From a virus (lineage: Duplodnaviria > Heunggongvirae > Uroviricota > Caudoviricetes), in IMG/VR virus record IMGVR_UViG_2690316285_000013: a DNA stretch of 6,310 nt. One strand, written 5' to 3'. Position 1 is the first letter of the stretch. Each line of letters opens with the position of its first letter. Below are positions 1 through 6,310 of the stretch, in pieces. Below the pieces are notes generated by a model, which was not told where the DNA came from, did no database searches, and saw only the letters and a program-made list of their open reading frames with translations. Position numbers and translations under genes: made by a program.

Positions 1-31
1 AAAACACTATCAATAAGTTGGAGTCATTACC
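1..31 (+). mobile_element. IS1 right terminus (last 31 bp including the terminal inverted repeat); the element body lies left of the window
   Basis: Positions 1-31 (AAAACACTATCAATAAGTTGGAGTCATTACC) match the 3' end of IS1 as I recall it. The boundary is ambiguous by 1-2 bp because the flank continues with CC. No transposase ORF is inside the window. Confidence 0.7.
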
Positions 32-131
32 CCAATTTTTTACGTACGTAAACCACTAAATGATATTTGCGAGAATGCTACCGAGTATTGAAAACACCAC
101 TACAAATACATAAGCAAATCCCAACAAATAA

Positions 132-774
132 CCAACAAATAATTTCCAGTGTTATTTTTAGCCGGTTTAAATTGAACCTTCAAATTATAGAGCACTTATA
201 AATAACAGCCGTTAATATAAATTGGCTAATAGATTTATTTTTATTCAGCCAAGAGCCATGAATAGGATTCGATAGAAAAAAGTTCAGATAAAAATAGAGA
301 TCTACTTCACAAATCAAACGAGAAACCAAAACTTACATCTTGAAATAATCACATTGATTAGATGAATATTTATCGCGCAGTGACATCATTTTTTAATAAT
401 AGTTCAAAAAAAGGGCTCACGATGAAAAAATTAACAGTGGCAATTTCTGCTGTAGCTGCATCAGTACTGATGGCGATGTCTGCTCAGGCAGCTGAAATTT
501 ATAATAAAGACAGTAACAAGCTGGATCTGTACGGGAAAGTTAATGCTAAGCACTACTTCTCCTCTAATGATGCAGATGATGGTGATACTACTTATGCCCG
601 TCTTGGCTTCAAAGGTGAAACCCAAATCAACGATCAACTGACTGGTTTCGGTCAGTGGGAATATGAATTCAAAGGCAACCGCGCTGAATCTCAAGGTTCC
701 TCCAAAGATAAAACCCGTCTTGCCTTCGCTGGCCTGAAATTCGGTGACTACGGCTCCATCGATTACGGCCGTAA
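132..774 (+). repeat. Copy A of a 643-bp perfect direct repeat (porin upstream region plus the first 353 nt of the porin CDS)
   Basis: Base-by-base comparison shows 132-774 is identical to 1671-2313 (offset 1539). Copy A ends at the N-run, so its true extent is unknown. Confidence 0.9.
422..774 (+). pseudogene. 5' fragment (118 codons) of the NmpC/OmpD-family porin gene, interrupted by the N-run
   Basis: Same ATG, ribosome-binding site (AAGGG) and signal peptide ([25 protein letters not shown]) as the intact copy at 1961. The reading frame runs into N at 775, and the sequence after the N-run (1140 onward) does not match the porin 3' region. It may be a truncated copy or an assembly artefact. 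Confidence 0.45.
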
Positions 775-1139
775 NNNNNNNNNNNNNNNNNNNNNNNNNN
801 NNNNNNNNNNNNNNNNNNNNNNNNNNNNNNNNNNNNNNNNNNNNNNNNNNNNNNNNNNNNNNNNNNNNNNNNNNNNNNNNNNNNNNNNNNNNNNNNNNNN
901 NNNNNNNNNNNNNNNNNNNNNNNNNNNNNNNNNNNNNNNNNNNNNNNNNNNNNNNNNNNNNNNNNNNNNNNNNNNNNNNNNNNNNNNNNNNNNNNNNNNN
1001 NNNNNNNNNNNNNNNNNNNNNNNNNNNNNNNNNNNNNNNNNNNNNNNNNNNNNNNNNNNNNNNNNNNNNNNNNNNNNNNNNNNNNNNNNNNNNNNNNNNN
1101 NNNNNNNNNNNNNNNNNNNNNNNNNNNNNNNNNNNNNNN
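775..1139. other. Run of 365 undetermined bases (N): an assembly gap or masked sequence
   Basis: Directly visible. ORFs in the track that cross it (X residues) are not interpretable. Confidence 0.95.
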
Positions 1140-1226
1140 CGGATTGTTCAGGCTCCAATAGGTTGAGTATGCCGTATTTATTTTCCAAAATAAAAATCGA
1201 TGCTGTTGCTCCTTCATAAAATACTT

Positions 1227-1669
1227 TTACTCTCTGGACGCTTTTCTTAGCTCTCTTGGTGTTATCTTAAAACGATTATGGAACCTTTCAGTAAAACGAG
1301 AAGGACACTTGTAACCATTTTCCCTGGCAATCTCGCTGATGGGTTTTACTGTCGTTTGTATAGCAGACAACGCATTATTTAACCTCACGTCGTCCAATAT
1401 ACTTTGAAAACTTACTCCCTCGCTTGCCAGACGGCGATGCAATGTGGAAACAGAAATGTAGAGATATCTCGCTACCTTGTTTGCTGTCCATTTTGTTCCA
1501 GGTTCGGATAGCATTAGGTTATAACAACGACTTATTAATGATTGTTTACTATCTGATAAAAGTAAACAATTAACATGATGTGCTCCTAATGAAAGTAGAA
1601 CGCCCATTGCTAAGTGTTCCTGAATTTGCGTTGAGAAGCCTCGGGAAATAGATGTTTTTAGTTGCTCCC
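1227..1669 (-). pseudogene. 3' fragment of an AraC/XylS-family transcriptional regulator gene (C-terminal helix-turn-helix domain); the 5' part is missing at the junction at 1670
   Basis: The minus-strand translation (...[83 protein letters not shown]...) has the typical two-HTH AraC C-terminal signature. The frame stays open upstream of the listed Met all the way to the N at 1670 (…[23 protein letters not shown]…), so the gene is truncated by the junction and has no real start. It may be a ybcM-like prophage regulator, but I cannot confirm identity from memory. Confidence 0.6.
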
Positions 1670-1670
1670 N

Positions 1671-2313
1671 CCAACAAATAATTTCCAGTGTTATTTTTAG
1701 CCGGTTTAAATTGAACCTTCAAATTATAGAGCACTTATAAATAACAGCCGTTAATATAAATTGGCTAATAGATTTATTTTTATTCAGCCAAGAGCCATGA
1801 ATAGGATTCGATAGAAAAAAGTTCAGATAAAAATAGAGATCTACTTCACAAATCAAACGAGAAACCAAAACTTACATCTTGAAATAATCACATTGATTAG
1901 ATGAATATTTATCGCGCAGTGACATCATTTTTTAATAATAGTTCAAAAAAAGGGCTCACGATGAAAAAATTAACAGTGGCAATTTCTGCTGTAGCTGCAT
2001 CAGTACTGATGGCGATGTCTGCTCAGGCAGCTGAAATTTATAATAAAGACAGTAACAAGCTGGATCTGTACGGGAAAGTTAATGCTAAGCACTACTTCTC
2101 CTCTAATGATGCAGATGATGGTGATACTACTTATGCCCGTCTTGGCTTCAAAGGTGAAACCCAAATCAACGATCAACTGACTGGTTTCGGTCAGTGGGAA
2201 TATGAATTCAAAGGCAACCGCGCTGAATCTCAAGGTTCCTCCAAAGATAAAACCCGTCTTGCCTTCGCTGGCCTGAAATTCGGTGACTACGGCTCCATCG
2301 ATTACGGCCGTAA
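1671..2313 (+). repeat. Copy B of the 643-bp perfect direct repeat (part of the intact porin locus)
   Basis: Identical to 132-774. It is preceded by a single N at 1670. Confidence 0.9.
1879..1908 (+). promoter_or_regulatory. Candidate sigma70 promoter for the porin gene (TTGAAA -35-like hexamer, AT-rich -10 region about 18 bp downstream)
   Basis: TTGAAA at 1879-1884 and GAATAT/AATATT near 1903-1909, about 50 nt upstream of the ATG at 1961. The -10 match is weak and the call is by eye only. The same motif sits in copy A at 340-370. Confidence 0.2.
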
Positions 2314-3043
2314 CTACGGTGTAGCATACGACATCGGTGCGTGGACTGACGTCCTGCCAGAATTCGGTGGTGACACTTGGACTCAAACAGATGTGTTCAT
2401 GACTGGTCGCACCACTGGTGTTGCAACTTATCGTAACAACGACTTCTTTGGTCTGGTTGATGGTCTGAACTTTGCTGCTCAGTATCAGGGTAAAAATGAC
2501 CGCACTGACGTAACTGAAGCTAATGGTGATGGTTTCGGTTTCTCCACTACTTATGAGTATGAAGGATTCGGTGTAGGTGCAACCTATGCTAAATCTGACC
2601 GCACTAATAATCAGGTTATCTACGGTAACAACAGCCTGAATGCATCTGGTCAAAATGCTGAAGTATGGGCAGCTGGTCTGAAATATGATGCGAACAACAT
2701 CTATCTGGCTACCACCTATTCTGAAACCCAGAACATGACTGTTTTTGGTAATAACCATATTGCCAACAAAGCACAAAACTTCGAAGTAGTTGCACAATAT
2801 CAGTTCGACTTCGGTCTGCGTCCGTCCGTTGCTTACCTGCAATCTAAAGGAAAAGACTTGGGTGCGTGGGGTGATCAGGACCTGGTTGAATATATTGATG
2901 TAGGTGCAACCTATTACTTCAACAAAAATATGTCCACTTTTGTTGATTACAAAATCAACCTGATTGATAAGAGCGATTTCACGAAAGCATCTGGCGTTGC
3001 TACCGATGATATCGTTGCTGTAGGTATGGTTTACCAGTTCTAA
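1961..3043 (+). CDS. nmpC: Outer-membrane general porin of the OmpC/OmpF superfamily, closest to the prophage-borne NmpC/OmpD/Lc group (360 aa precursor)
   Basis: ATG at 1961 with AAGGG 8 nt upstream. The N-terminus is a classic signal peptide ending AQA/AE, followed by the porin hallmark [17 protein letters not shown] and PEFGG and a C-terminal VYQF beta-barrel signal. It lies next to lambdoid Q, as nmpC does in DLP12. The ORF-track start at 1901 (MNIYRAV...) is an upstream in-frame extension without a ribosome-binding site and is rejected. The gene symbol is less certain than the family. Confidence 0.85.
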
Positions 3044-3067
3044 TTTGATTACTAAAAGATATGTTGC

Positions 3068-3114
3068 GGGAGGCTTTGCCTCCCCAATATATAAGTGGCT
3101 CCCTCAAGCCACTT
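3068..3114 (+). terminator. Two adjacent stem-loops downstream of the porin gene (GGGAGGC-TTT-GCCTCCC at 3068-3084; AAGTGGCT-CCCTCA-AGCCACTT at 3093-3114)
   Basis: Perfect 7-bp and 8-bp inverted repeats seen directly. Neither is followed by a clean T-run, so terminator function is uncertain. They could also be a Q-utilisation or other regulatory element for minus-strand transcription. Confidence 0.3.
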
Positions 3115-3180
3115 CCTTTAGGAGCACAACCTTGCTTCTAACTATATAAACCTTCTGTTATATATTACCCTTTATTTTTG

Positions 3181-3214
3181 GGGGCGTTGCAACGCCCCAT
3201 TTTTAATAATTTTT
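3181..3214 (+). terminator. Rho-independent terminator (GC-rich palindrome GGGGCGTTGCAACGCCCC followed by ATTTTTAATAATTTTT)
   Basis: GC-rich hairpin followed by a T-rich tract on the plus strand, between the convergent porin (stop 3043) and Q (stop 3232). The T-run favours plus-strand termination of the porin transcript. Confidence 0.5.
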
Positions 3215-3231
3215 AGTAAACAATTGGCATA

Positions 3232-3615
3232 TTAATTAGAGTTATTAACAACGATATCCATCTCTAACCGGATATCTAATGCCATTAACATCCCTTCAAT
3301 TATGCCCTCAGCCTTCTGTAACCTTTTCCCGATATAACCATCAGAGCAGCAATGCTTACCTGCCAGTGACATGAATGTCATACCGACTACATAATAATCT
3401 ACTAATAAATCGTGCAAATCGCTGTTGTTCTTTTTCAGACGGGCCATGCACCCGCAAATAATCATCGCGTCATCGTCACAACATTGCGGGCGAGATTTTA
3501 CTTTTGAAGTAATTAATCCCTTAAAACCGGCGGCAATGGACGACCAGGTCACATCTTCATGATTATTAGCCGCCCACGCTCCCCAACGCTCAAGAACCAT
3601 CTGAATATCACGCAT
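3232..3615 (-). CDS. quuD: Lambdoid late-gene antiterminator Q (127 aa)
   Basis: The translation ([31 protein letters not shown]...[18 protein letters not shown]...) matches the DLP12/phage-82-type Q family as I recall it. ATG at 3615 with GGAG 8 nt upstream. The ORF-track start at 3630 uses TTG with no ribosome-binding site and is rejected. Confidence 0.8.
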
Positions 3616-3700
3616 CAACTTACTCCACAAAAATCAGACCAGAACGCCAATTACAAGCAAAAATCAACAAAACAGTATTAGTTGATTGTTATCTCTGACT

Positions 3701-3841
3701 TCATACTCCTGCTCCTGTCAGGGTTTTGGCGTAATTCTTCAGTATTCGGTAATCGGTCAAAACAGAACCGGGGAAACGATATAAGCGCAGATGCCCCCAG
3801 CGGTGGCGAAGAAGTTCTGCCATATAAAACTCAAACATCAT
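3701..3841 (-). CDS. ylcG: Small 46-aa protein, YlcG-like, translationally coupled to rusA (ATGA overlap)
   Basis: Minus-strand [49 protein letters not shown], which I translated by hand. Its start ATG (3841-3839) overlaps the rusA stop (3840-3838). The size and position between rusA and Q match ylcG of DLP12, but identity is not verified. It is not in the supplied ORF track. Confidence 0.4.
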
Positions 3842-4200
3842 TCATTCCCCATTTCGGTGATGGTCAGTTCCAGCCTCCCACCTTTGGTAACAGGCATCTT
3901 CACAACGCGGTAATCAACGACCTGAGCATCATCCAGCCAGAAACCTGCTTTGGTGAGTGCGTCAAAAGCGGCTTTTTGCAGATTATCCAGGTCACGGCGA
4001 CGGCGATCCGGCATGTGGCACTCAATACGGATTTTCACTGGCATAGCCAGGCCGATATCCAGCATTGCGTTTTTAATGATTCGGGTGACGTTATCGCGGT
4101 ATGCCTGCCCTTCTGCGCTGATGTGTGTGCGCCCGCGATTATGGCGGTAATAGCGGTTATTGCTCGGAGGCCAGGGTAATGTGATGCTGTAGGTATTCAC
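3838..4200 (-). CDS. rusA: RusA Holliday-junction resolvase (120 aa)
   Basis: [23 protein letters not shown]... and the acidic catalytic region [18 protein letters not shown]...WLDDAQV match RusA. The start codon is GTG at 4200-4198, overlapping the ybcO stop. Confidence 0.85.
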
Positions 4201-4487
4201 GCCTTAATAACCCCCTCTTTCAGCCAGATAACCTGCGTTCTCGCCATACCTTCCAGCGCGCATTCTTTTGCATACTCAGCATCGACAAAATATGTGCGGC
4301 GGTCGATTTCGTCGTGACAGGCAGAACATGCAATGGTGGCAATCAGGTCTGGCGGTTTGATACCGGTACCGCACAATCCAGCCAGCCGGATATGTGCCAG
4401 TACTGACGTTTCAGGATTGCCATTACATACGCCAGGGATTCTTACCTGGCATTCCCGACCACGCGCTGCTTTTCTCAAATCAGCCAT
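4197..4487 (-). CDS. ybcO: YbcO-like Cys-rich protein (DUF1364; putative prophage nuclease), 96 aa
   Basis: ATG at 4487 preceded by AGGAGG (plus-strand TCCTCC at 4491-4496). The protein [23 protein letters not shown]...CSACHDEID is Cys-rich. The ORF-track start at 4526 is a 13-codon upstream extension and is rejected. The start overlaps the ninE stop by 8 nt. Confidence 0.7.
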
Positions 4488-4650
4488 GATTCCTCCTTGC
4501 TGCCAGTCGCAACCATTTTTTATCAACCAGGCTAGCGGTATATCCGAGCAGTGTTGGTATTTCGGATGGCTTCAGCTCAGGCTTACGCTTACGACGATTT
4601 GATACTCTGTAGATGTGCCCGTTCATGACACGAATAAGCGGTGTAGCCAT
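4480..4650 (-). CDS. ninE: NinE-like small protein (56 aa)
   Basis: Hand-translated minus-strand [59 protein letters not shown]. Its ATG (4650-4648) overlaps the ninB stop (TAATG), and its position between ninB and ybcO matches lambdoid nin regions. It is not in the supplied ORF track. Confidence 0.6.
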   Translation of the reverse strand: MATPLIRVMNGHIYRVSNRRKRKPELKPSEIPTLLGYTASLVDKKWLRLAARRNHG

Positions 4651-5105
4651 TACGCCTCCTGCTTATCGCGCAGCTGCTGGTATTCACAGCTCTGCGGAAT
4701 TGTCAGGTGGCAGCCGATATTCATCGCCCAGGCTTCGACTTTGCACAGGAAGATGTACATCTCGCCGGTTTCCAGCTCTGACGTATGGCGGAGGGATTGG
4801 ACGGTGGTGACCTCGCCGGACACGACATCTACACGGTCTTTGCTTTCGTAGCCGAGATAGGTGTGCTTCATCGCGTCTTTGACCCACTCAGGCGTAGCGA
4901 AGGTCTTGCCGCGGGCGATGAGATATTCGCTGATCTCCGTGTACCACATGTGGCTGAGCGCGTTCTGCGACAGGCTGCGCTTCTCGCGCCACGGCTTAAC
5001 CTGCAGGCGTAAGCATTGCCCGGCATCCAGCAATGGCTGAATCTGCTGGCCGATGGCCGCGAAGTTACCGCGATGGAGTTTGATGCCGTCTACTGGCAGA
5101 GTCAT
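4650..5105 (-). CDS. ninB: NinB/Orf-family recombination mediator (151 aa; YbcN-like)
   Basis: ATG at 5105 with GGGAGG upstream. Length and motifs (RSLSQNALSHMWYTEISEYL) are consistent with the lambda NinB family. It is the first long gene of the minus-strand operon. Confidence 0.8.
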   Translation of the reverse strand: MTLPVDGIKLHRGNFAAIGQQIQPLLDAGQCLRLQVKPWREKRSLSQNALSHMWYTEISEYLIARGKTFATPEWVKDAMKHTYLGYESKDRVDVVSGEVTTVQSLRHTSELETGEMYIFLCKVEAWAMNIGCHLTIPQSCEYQQLRDKQEA

Positions 5106-5197
5106 ACGGCCTCCCTAACGGAAACCGCAGAATGCAGAAAATCGCAGGTGCATTTCTGCATCTGTGACAAGGTGATGAGTTCAGATTGTGGTCGCAT
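5102..5197 (-). CDS. Small 31-aa ORF, translationally coupled to ninB (ATGA overlap); possibly ylcH-like
   Basis: Hand-translated MRPQSELITLSQMQKCTCDFLHSAVSVREAV. It has an AAGGGGA ribosome-binding site 6 nt upstream, and its stop overlaps the ninB ATG. It is very short, so this is a low-confidence call. Confidence 0.3.
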   Translation of the reverse strand: MRPQSELITLSQMQKCTCDFLHSAVSVREAV

Positions 5198-5216
5198 TTA
5201 AGTCCCCTTAAATGCG
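5132..5216. promoter_or_regulatory. Two inverted repeats upstream of ninB (ATGCAGAAA-12 bp-TTTCTGCAT at 5132-5161; CGCATTTAA-GTCCCC-TTAAATGCG at 5193-5216)
   Basis: Perfect 9-bp arms seen directly. The second repeat encloses the ribosome-binding site of the small ORF. Candidate roles are operator, RNA structure or an early-operon terminator of the tR2 type, with no clean U-tract. Confidence 0.3.
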
Positions 5217-5369
5217 CAGAAGTCACCGGAGTTGTTCAGGCTCCGATGAGAGGATTATGGCGGATTGATTACGATAAATCAAAACTATCTTGAAGCCAAA
5301 ACAGTGATCTTCGCTTTAAAAACCTTGTATACTTTCACCTAATCACAGCCAGAACTATGGATCTAACCA

Positions 5370-5747
5370 ATGACCAACAAAGAAAACAAAGATAAATATA
5401 TTAACAAGTTCAAGAAAGAGCTTTCAAAATATATACAACCAACTGCTGGAGTGGACATTCAATTATTTAACTCTAAGGATGGTGGTGGTGTAATTAAAGC
5501 CACTTTGAATAGAAGTGGAAAAAGAAAATCATCTATTGCTGGTAATTTTACTAAATTAGGTGAGGCAATTACCTCGAGTGGGCAGAGGGTTTTTGGTGGT
5601 GATCTATCAAATGTGAATTTTTACGGAACAAATACGATTTTTGATGGAGATACAATATTTTTAATTAAATCACCTGATTCAGAGGAGTGGTCATCACAAA
5701 AAGCTTCCAAAGACGTAGAGGGCATCGTATTTGGAGGGAAAAAATGA
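5370..5747 (+). CDS. Hypothetical hydrophilic protein, 125 aa, Lys- and Gly-rich, no signal peptide or transmembrane segment; first gene of an AT-rich two-gene cassette
   Basis: ORF from ATG 5370 to TGA 5745-5747, with an in-frame stop 2 codons upstream, so it is not a fragment of a longer frame. The ribosome-binding site is weak (GGA about 9 nt upstream). Base composition is much more AT-rich than the adjacent nin genes. I recognise no family. Confidence 0.55.
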   Translation: MTNKENKDKYINKFKKELSKYIQPTAGVDIQLFNSKDGGGVIKATLNRSGKRKSSIAGNFTKLGEAITSSGQRVFGGDLSNVNFYGTNTIFDGDTIFLIKSPDSEEWSSQKASKDVEGIVFGGKK

Positions 5748-6172
5748 TTAACATTACTACTAAGGATGGCACTCAAGTCAGTGGTGAAGTAAGAGATCTA
5801 GTAATTCTTCTTGAAACTGATGGAAAAACGGTGTCTGATTATTTGCAGCCAATCCCTCCCAAAAAAGATACACACTGGAGCATGATTTTCATTCCGGTAG
5901 CAATTTATATACTACTTAATCTTGTATACATTATTGCTCACCCATTATTTCCTGAAAAATATCTAAAAACATCAACATCTATATTTCTATTCATTTCCTT
6001 CATATTAAGTGCAATAGTAGCATATTTTGTTTTCCATAAGCATAAATCTGCCACTCTATCCATATGCAGCTTAGTGTTCTTAGTGTTAATTGTAGGTGCT
6101 AACGTAGGGTTTATCAGTTACAGCGACCTAACACAAAAAGCGACGCAAAAATTAGATAGTTTGTCTAAATAA
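5744..6172 (+). CDS. Hypothetical small integral membrane protein, 142 aa: about 45-aa hydrophilic N-terminal domain followed by three predicted transmembrane helices and a charged C-terminal tail
   Basis: ATG at 5744 overlaps the upstream stop (ATGA), with a strong GGAGGG ribosome-binding site 5 nt upstream. Hydrophobic stretches: WSMIFIPVAIYILLNLVYIIAHPLF, TSIFLFISFILSAIVAYFVF, LSICSLVFLVLIVGANVGFISY. The ORF-track start at 5687 is a non-ATG extension inside the upstream gene and is rejected. Confidence 0.6.
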   Translation: MINITTKDGTQVSGEVRDLVILLETDGKTVSDYLQPIPPKKDTHWSMIFIPVAIYILLNLVYIIAHPLFPEKYLKTSTSIFLFISFILSAIVAYFVFHKHKSATLSICSLVFLVLIVGANVGFISYSDLTQKATQKLDSLSK

Positions 6173-6279
6173 TTATGTTGCCATGCGAAGTATGCATGGC
6201 TGCATGTCTGCCTTCCATTTAAAATGGGCTAAGACCTATAACCCTAAATATTATTCTTTATTATCTTCTTTACCACTTC

Positions 6280-6310
6280 GGTGATGCTGCCAACTTACTG
6301 ATTTAGTGTA
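6280..6310 (+). mobile_element. IS1 left terminus (first 31 bp including the terminal inverted repeat); the element continues right of the window
   Basis: GGTGATGCTGCCAACTTACTGATTTAGTGTA matches the IS1 left end as I recall it. It is in the same orientation as the IS1 end at 1-31. Confidence 0.7.

Follow-up and report, generated by a model that had tools for sequence, protein, structure and literature searches.

The 6,310-nt stretch of DNA analysed here (hereafter the window) holds an intact prophage porin gene and a Q/nin gene module between two IS1 ends. This raises the question of whether the segment is a composite transposon of the Tn9 type or a draft-assembly sequence that broke in IS1 repeats, both of which had been put forward in the original prediction. 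For this, the ends of the window were aligned by blastn-short to an annotated IS1A of E. coli CV839-06 (L002 7946-8713, flanked by the 9-bp target duplication TGAATAGAA). Each terminal 31-mer was identical to an IS1A end at 31/31 positions (E about 1e-12 per end), with the IRL (GGTGATGCTGCCAACTTACTGAT...) at 6280-6310 and the IRR (...ATCAATAAGTTGGAGTCATTACC) at 1-31. Both termini lie on the plus strand, so the two IS1 copies are directly oriented, as had been claimed, and no further IS1 sequence was found between the two window ends. The idea that the terminal 31-mers look like IS1 by chance, or stem from another element, is excluded by these exact matches to annotated IS1A ends and by related assemblies, which continue from both junctions into complete IS1 copies with InsA/InsB domains. 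The features of the window are listed in Table 1.

Table 1. Features of the 6,310-nt window, with strand and supporting evidence.
Feature	Position	Strand	Evidence or remark
Last 31 nt of IS1 (right terminus, including IRR; end of left-hand IS1)	1..31	+	Equal to IS1A nt 738-768, exact
Inner copy of the 8-bp target-site duplication CCAATTTT of the left IS1	32..39		Comparison of outer and inner flanks
essD-porin intergenic region and 5' part of porin gene (copy A)	32..774	+	Colinear with L001 4001-4744
Run of 365 N, read as scaffold gap	775..1139		Five other assemblies of this locus have no counterpart
ybcM fragment (DLP12 AraC-family gene; 3' part and downstream DNA), 530 bp, out of place	1140..1669	-	Identity to the ybcM of many E. 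coli genomes is 100%
Single N where ybcM meets the porin-upstream region	1670..1670		9-nt microhomology tcccaacaa at the joint
Second copy of 132-774 (copy B), running on into the rest of the porin gene	1671..2313	+	0 mismatches in 643 nt
Prophage porin, 360 aa, NmpC/OmpD/Lc type	1961..3043	+	Pfam Porin_1, E = 3e-153
quuD	3232-3615	-	RefSeq annotation of colinear L001
ylcG	3701-3841	-	RefSeq annotation of colinear L001
rusA	3838-4200	-	RefSeq annotation of colinear L001
ybcO	4197-4487	-	RefSeq annotation of colinear L001
ninE	4480-4650	-	RefSeq annotation of colinear L001
ybcN	4650-5105	-	RefSeq annotation of colinear L001; Pfam NinB matches YbcN
Unannotated gene, 125 aa	5370-5747	+	"Hypothetical protein" in L001
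Unannotated gene, 142 aa	5744-6172	+	"Hypothetical protein" in L001
Last 29 nt of replication protein P gene, cut by right IS1	6251..6279	-	P CDS (L001 8682-9395) aligns from window 6251; match ends at the IS1 boundary
Inner flank of right IS1, TACCACTTC	6271..6279		Not duplicated beyond the right IS1
First 31 nt of IS1 (left terminus, IRL; start of right-hand IS1)	6280..6310	+	Equal to IS1A nt 1-31, exact

Both IS1 junctions were found, exact, in five independent assemblies, namely L013 (CP104423), L015 (CP049179), L018 (CP029794, Shigella sonnei 4303), L022 and L024 (IMG/VR), and every assembly with the junctions shows one common genomic context. L018, the closest match, is 100% identical to positions 1-774 of the window (32-774 corresponding to L018 6202-6944) and differs by one base from positions 1671-6310. 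When compared with the related assemblies, the window has a single private SNP, at 3088; as this position is intergenic, no window-private protein variants were found. Complete IS1 copies at the junctions are known from the related assemblies, the window itself containing just 31 nt at each end: a full 768-bp IS1 is present at both sites in L013, L015, L022 and L024 and at the left site also in L025, and at the right junction the IS1 runs on in all five assemblies. A complete IS1 encodes InsA and InsB, with InsAB' made by frameshift, and the copies at the two junctions carry the Pfam domains Zn_ribbon_InsA, HTH_Tnp_IS1 and DDE_Tnp_IS1. L018 is an Ion Torrent, reference-guided assembly in which the IS1 copies are garbled, and it was dropped as evidence on IS1 structure. 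From IS1 to IS1, the segment measures 4709-4710 bp in L013, L015, L018 and L024; in L022, where additional one-base gaps occur, it measures 4705 bp.

Among the genes enclosed by the two IS1 copies, the porin is annotated as OmpC in L001 and as OmpD in lambdoid phages, and the minus-strand genes from quuD to ybcN form a late-regulation and nin module, with the Pfam families found. The products of the two unannotated genes gave neither a Pfam match at the curated cut-off nor a PADLOC hit; a sub-threshold 7TM-type Pfam match, the only one obtained for the 142-aa product, suggests that this protein may be located in the membrane.

The left IS1 arose by simple insertion, which for IS1 is characterised by a direct target duplication of 8-9 bp. 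In L013, L015, L018 and L022 the left junction reads ...cataaCCAATTTT, IS1, CCAATTTTttacg, and at this site the uninterrupted reference L001 reads cataaccaattttttacg, showing that the element has its own 8-bp target duplication, CCAATTTT. The letters of the inner flanks had been read accurately in the original prediction (32-40, CCAATTTTT; 6271-6279, TACCACTTC); the nine nucleotides given on the left exceed the true duplication unit, however, and its observation of unequal inner flanks, while true, is uninformative, since it is the outer flanks that decide. Native prophage DNA, colinear with L001, lies outside the left IS1. Because the left IS1 has its own duplication and the DNA outside it is native prophage, the cargo is still in its original place. 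This copy arrived independently of the right one, landing in the essD-porin spacer and creating the 8-bp duplication. The DNA beyond the window ends is predicted to read ...CATAACCAATTTT on the left and CGCTTGCAG followed by cscK' on the right.

No target duplication surrounds the right IS1, whose inner flank is TACCACTTC and whose outer flank is CGCTTGCAG. In L013, L015, L018 and L022 the outer flank (cgcttgcag...) is the 3' end of cscK, followed by cscB; in E. coli E2865 the csc locus is found at 3.27 Mb and the porin flank at 0.63 Mb, about 2.6 Mb apart. The 9-mer CGCTTGCAG, which adjoins the IRR of the right IS1, recurs, as its reverse complement, on the IRL side of a third, inverted IS1. 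Because the partner of this 9-mer sits on the third IS1, the right IS1 is the product of an IS1-mediated rearrangement and connects gene P of the prophage with the csc sucrose locus. A simple adjacent deletion was rejected, as the outer flank maps to csc, which lies 2.6 Mb off in the E2865 genome of E. coli, and as the two copies of the 9-bp duplication are split between the right IS1 and an inverted one. A one-step duplicative inversion was likewise rejected, as the IRR flank of the third IS1 is not the remainder of the P gene. The 20-kb loci did not contain this remainder and the TACCACTTC partner that belongs to it, and the other flank of the third IS1 is unrelated DNA; the rearrangement history therefore had more than one step and is only partly reconstructed. 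As to the order of events, we infer that the right IS1 would first have inserted, separately from the left copy, into the 3' end of gene P, and would later have rearranged with an IS1 in cscK, either by recombination between IS1 copies or by duplicative inversion. There are three IS1 copies within 20 kb of L013, and IS1 is highly multi-copy in Shigella. The view of the locus as IS1-rich and rearrangement-prone is supported.

Is the bracketed segment then a transposon? A functional composite, in which the direct IS1 pair mobilises the porin/Q/nin cargo and the segment came to its site by transposition, would fit the direct IS1 pair, its outer ends intact, around the segment in L013, L015, L022 and L024, as well as the difference of only one base between the left and right copies over the shared positions, but is very improbable: the outer flanks (CCAATTTT on the left, CGCTTGCAG on the right) form no duplication around the unit, the left copy has a duplication of its own with colinear native prophage DNA outside, the 9-mer partner of the right copy is on a third IS1, and a 2.1-kb IS21-family element splits the right IS1 in the same four assemblies. 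A search for the IS1-bounded segment on plasmids and at other loci, which had been proposed as a check, found none: the left and right junctions occurred in 0 of 5,426 complete E. coli genomes, the left junction gave 0 matches in an exact-pattern scan of species-representative genomes, and at least 80% of the unit was covered by none of 72,556 plasmid and none of 50,697 phage records. Thus the Tn9-like interpretation stands for the layout of two direct IS1 copies and falls for the origin as a mobile unit, as there is no shared duplication and native prophage lies outside; the layout formed in place and is not a transposon that moved. It is also very improbable that the IS1-porin-Q-nin-IS1 block, although assembled in place, is a still-active Tn9-like element in S. 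sonnei; if it were, an intact phage porin gene and a Q antiterminator could be carried onto plasmids or elsewhere in the chromosome.

The other suggestion, of a draft contig broken in IS1, agrees with the 31-nt ends, the N gaps and the real IS1 at both sites in relatives. With equal 31-nt IS1 overhangs at both ends, a run of 365 N, a single N and a mismatch-free 643-nt duplicate, the window is very probably a short-read draft scaffold from Shigella sonnei or a very close relative, in which the interior of a degraded DLP12-type lambdoid prophage was broken at two genuine IS1 copies. Since IS1 is multi-copy in this genome, the assembler would have been unable to cross the two copies, and the sequence would stop one k-mer (31 nt) inside IS1 at both ends. 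The suspicion that 31 bp is k-mer sized agrees with the equal depth at both ends and the N gaps; the k-mer size itself (k = 31, or k-1 = 31) and the S. sonnei origin of this window are what we infer. In 6298 of 12488 index blocks, the longest contig example with the 125-aa protein was just 2-5 kb, which fits a 4.7-kb IS1-bounded contig as a routine product of short-read assembly. Shigella chromosomes contain 229-348 IS insertions, 46-73% of which are IS1 (PMC7373316). Under a Poisson model with 100-200 IS1 copies in 4.8 Mb, about 5-18 neighbouring IS1 pairs in direct orientation within 4.7 kb are expected.

The original prediction described a 6.2-kb segment, a length that is inflated by 1539 bp (775-2313): in the five other assemblies 4.7 kb lie between the IS1 copies, and this anomaly had gone unnoticed. 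The extra 1539 bp are most likely a scaffolding artefact, in which a small contig may have been mis-scaffolded, with subsequent gap filling, leaving the N gap, the ybcM fragment and the duplicated porin 5' region. A real, strain-specific duplication or insertion within the IS1-bounded segment is unlikely. Copies A and B show no mismatch in 643 nt, N characters fall at both joints, and the block, including the ybcM fragment, is absent from the segment in L013, L015, L018, L022 and L024, although one of these assemblies is otherwise only one base different from the window. The pattern of the ybcM/porin joint gave 0 matches in an exact-pattern scan of 185,579 species-representative genomes. Native ybcM reads on across the joint position as ...gttgctccc/aacaatat, and the 9-nt microhomology at the joint could, in favour of a real block, also have come from illegitimate recombination. 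Also in its favour, a look-up of the truncated 126-aa YbcM found E. coli remnant loci adjoining fliE, where ybcM' normally sits, and such loci have a native order of porin 5' fragment, quuD' fragment and ybcM' (about 82% identity to the window), which makes recombination between two DLP12-type remnants conceivable; the truncated YbcM protein is, however, mostly found on contigs of less than 2 kb (251 of 375 blocks), as expected of a small repeat-bounded contig of the kind that scaffolders misplace. A native adjacency of ybcM and porin was also considered, as L011 has ybcM' beside a porin, and was rejected, as the L011 porin is a different gene (68-80% similar) and the flanks mismatch. Any porin duplication or ybcM-porin adjacency read from this window would most likely be an assembly artefact; the true length of the IS1-bounded gene set is 4.7 kb, and its order lacks the ybcM fragment.

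DLP12 is a defective lambdoid prophage of E. coli K-12 with the genes essD, nmpC, quuD, ylcG, rusA, ybcO, ninE and ybcN, in which IS5 interrupts nmpC. The window shares with it the gene order and names over 1961-5105 and a porin module degraded by IS elements. It differs in having an intact porin and, as its IS elements, an IS1 copy on either side of the module; two unknown genes replace the ybcM/ybcL side, and the arm with the replication, immunity and integrase functions no longer lies next to it. Tn9 has the layout IS1-cat-IS1, with its IS1 copies as direct repeats, and the locus resembles it in having a direct IS1 pair around a few kb of non-IS DNA. Unlike in Tn9, the unit here lacks a flanking duplication, its cargo still runs on into native prophage at one end, the databases searched yielded no second copy at another site or on a plasmid, no selectable cargo is evident, and most assemblies examined have a further IS within the right IS1. 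The result serves mainly as a caution: the IS1 bracket does not mark the enclosed genes as mobile cargo. The window resembles contigs that de Bruijn graph assemblers break at multi-copy repeats, both in the equal, k-mer-sized depth of its ends within the repeat and in the N-filled scaffold gaps and duplicated gap edge.

IS1 is the commonest IS in Shigella, where its copies disrupt unrelated loci or link them together (Hawkey et al. 2020, PMC7373316; Seferbekova et al. 2021, PMC8072062). An individual description of this joint between a DLP12-type remnant and csc was not found in the literature. The window is an ordinary outcome of IS1 proliferation in Shigella, the biology of which is already known, and adds one more documented case of a Shigella prophage eroded first by IS1 insertion and then by IS1-mediated rearrangement, a process well described genome-wide. 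In line with the IS1 insertions and rearrangements reported for Shigella (PMC7373316, PMC8072062), the locus combines one simple insertion with a duplication, one recombinant copy without, and an IS-in-IS insertion, and shows no substantive difference from them.

The first bases of the window read aaaacactatcaataagttggagtcattacc and its last bases ggtgatgctgccaacttactgatttagtgta. Compared with the annotated IS1A of E. coli CV839-06 (L002 7946–8713, flanked by a 9-bp duplication TGAATAGAA), positions 1–31 matched the last 31 nt and positions 6280–6310 the first 31 nt, in both cases at 31/31 and on the plus strand, and the window held no IS1 sequence besides these two ends. The original prediction of directly oriented IS1 termini at both ends was thus confirmed, a chance match being impossible. 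The reference copy itself lies inside the 125-aa gene of this pig ETEC strain (L002 7937–8722, duplication TGAATAGAA) and is an independent insertion, so the same prophage segment was struck by IS1 separately in another lineage.

Both window junctions were found exactly in four long assemblies reached via look-up of the 125-aa protein, L013 (CP104423), L015 (CP049179), L018 (CP029794) and L022; L024 and L025 came in addition from a scan of IMG/VR. The window was 100% identical to L018 over 1–774 and differed from it by one base over 1671–6310; L018 derives from assembly GCA_002073875, which is Shigella sonnei 4303 (PMC6201595), and given this near-identity the window very probably comes from S. 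sonnei or something very closely related. The sole window-private base is at position 3088 (T, vs C in L001, the uninterrupted E. coli reference, L013, L015, L018, L022 and L024), in the porin–quuD intergenic region directly after a GC-rich hairpin. Ion Torrent reads, assembled with SPAdes and scaffolded along a reference, underlie L018 (PMC6201595), which accounts for the internally deleted or garbled IS1 copies (L018 5738–6200 and 10911–11731) in the 'complete genome' CP029794 and makes its repeat structure untrustworthy. IS1 structure was taken from L013, L015, L022 and L024.

In these four loci, a full 768-bp IS1 in plus orientation finishes at window position 31, with the outer flank ...cataaCCAATTTT and the inner flank CCAATTTTttacg, the uninterrupted E. 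coli sequence at this site being cataaccaattttttacg. This left copy is a simple insertion with an 8-bp target duplication, one base less than the 9-mer originally quoted as the inner left flank; outside it, native prophage lysis genes carry on. The right IS1 begins at 6280 after TACCACTTC, within the 3' end of gene P, and its far side reads cgcttgcagtaacggcg..., i.e. the cscK 3' end and then cscB, genes of the sucrose locus. In E. coli E2865, the csc locus lies at 3.27 Mb and the porin-side flank at 0.63 Mb. The csc locus is broken (L013/L015 13812–18440; L023 8719–9009): the cscK 3' end and cscB adjoin the right IS1, whereas the inverted 5' part of cscK stands beside a third IS1, itself inverted, approximately 3.6 kb further on. 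On its IRL side the third copy carries the reverse complement of the far-side 9-mer of the right IS1, CGCTTGCAG, and next to it the 5' part of cscK. Because this 9-mer is common to both copies, the target duplication of one cscK insertion is divided over two IS1, the mark left by an inversion or recombination that IS1 mediates. The other flank of the third IS1 does not match the remainder of the P gene, so there was more than one event. The right IS1 is also split, in L013, L015, L022 and L024, by an IS21-family element with IstA/IstB genes and TGTCA...TGACA ends, an IS-within-IS insertion; in L015 (region 10910–13812) it is 2131 bp long and inserted after IS1 nt 231 with a 4-bp duplication.

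Among 5,426 complete E. coli genomes searched by megablast, 46 were colinear with window 32–6280. RefSeq annotation of the best genomes, L001 and L002, identified the genes and, with them, the inside of a DLP12-type lambdoid prophage (see table). The porin-to-ybcN module is common to inducible lambdoid phages (90–95% identity), and this homology stops near 5284, just short of the 125-aa and 142-aa genes, whose products gave no Pfam match over the cut-off and no PADLOC hit. Compared with the window, L018 and E. coli, one base is missing at window 5768 in L013, L015, L022 and L024 (at about 10399–10412 in L013, L015 and L024); the 142-aa gene is frameshifted by it and is not called in L013, L015 or L022.

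Features in and next to the window (window coordinates)
Feature	Position	Strand	Remark
essD	beyond left end		RefSeq annotation
Run of 365 N	775–1139		
530-bp piece	1140–1669		100% identical to DLP12 gene ybcM
Single N	1670		
Second copy of 132–774	1671–2313		0 mismatches in 643 nt
Porin gene	1961–3043		RefSeq annotation
quuD, ylcG, rusA, ybcO, ninE, ybcN	spanning 3232–5105	minus	RefSeq annotation
Two hypothetical genes, 125 aa and 142 aa	5370–6172		co-oriented; between ybcN and P
Replication gene P, last 29 nt	6251–6279		

The colinear stretch in reference genomes is only ~4710 bp, the window being longer by 1539 bp (775–2313). Native ybcM reads on as ...gttgctccc/aacaatat, and the window's joint of ybcM to the porin upstream region coincides with a 9-nt microhomology, tcccaacaa. 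This joint occurred in 0 of 185,579 species-representative genomes, and the block was missing from 5/5 other assemblies of the exact locus. It is probably a small contig put in the wrong place, with the gap then filled, and the seeming second, truncated copy of the porin is thus probably not real. A small remnant of DLP12 type sits next to fliE in many E. coli genomes (L003–L010 and L012, e.g. L003 8689–11102). Besides emrE-like and ybcL genes it contains ybcM as a pseudogene (126-aa ORF), ~95 nt of quuD and a 5' piece of a porin gene with ~82% identity to the window; IS200/IS605-type genes come after these.

A 4.7-kb stretch between two directly oriented IS1 copies is a real layout, and the Tn9-like arrangement originally proposed stands to that extent. 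That the block is a composite transposon, still active, is unlikely and supported by nothing found here. The outer flanks of the left and right IS1 share no duplication, and the left side is still joined to native prophage, so transposition as a unit did not hold up. Moreover, neither junction was present in complete E. coli genomes (0/5,426), the context was identical in every junction-bearing assembly, and a search for the IS1-bounded segment yielded no occurrence on plasmids (72,556 records), in phages (50,697) or at other loci. Direct IS1 pairs are also expected by chance because IS1 is so numerous in Shigella, whose chromosomes hold 229–348 IS insertions, 46–73% of them IS1 (PMC7373316); under a Poisson model with these IS1 numbers, roughly 5–18 direct-orientation pairs within 4.7 kb are expected per genome.

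The other original reading, an assembly break in IS1 repeats, is favoured by the equal 31-nt IS1 ends, the N gaps, the artefactual duplicate and the short contigs carrying the 125-aa protein (longest contig only 2–5 kb in about half of the index blocks holding it). Sequence comparison thus supports the assembly break as the correct alternative, with the IS1 copies at both sites being real; the exact assembler and k value behind the window ends are inferred.

At the place of the 125-aa and 142-aa genes, K-12-type DLP12 carries ybcM and ybcL. Tn9 has a similar direct IS1 pair around a segment, but the defining tests for a transposed unit fail here. The expansion of IS1 in Shigella, the rearrangements that go with it and the ending of contigs in IS copies are already known.
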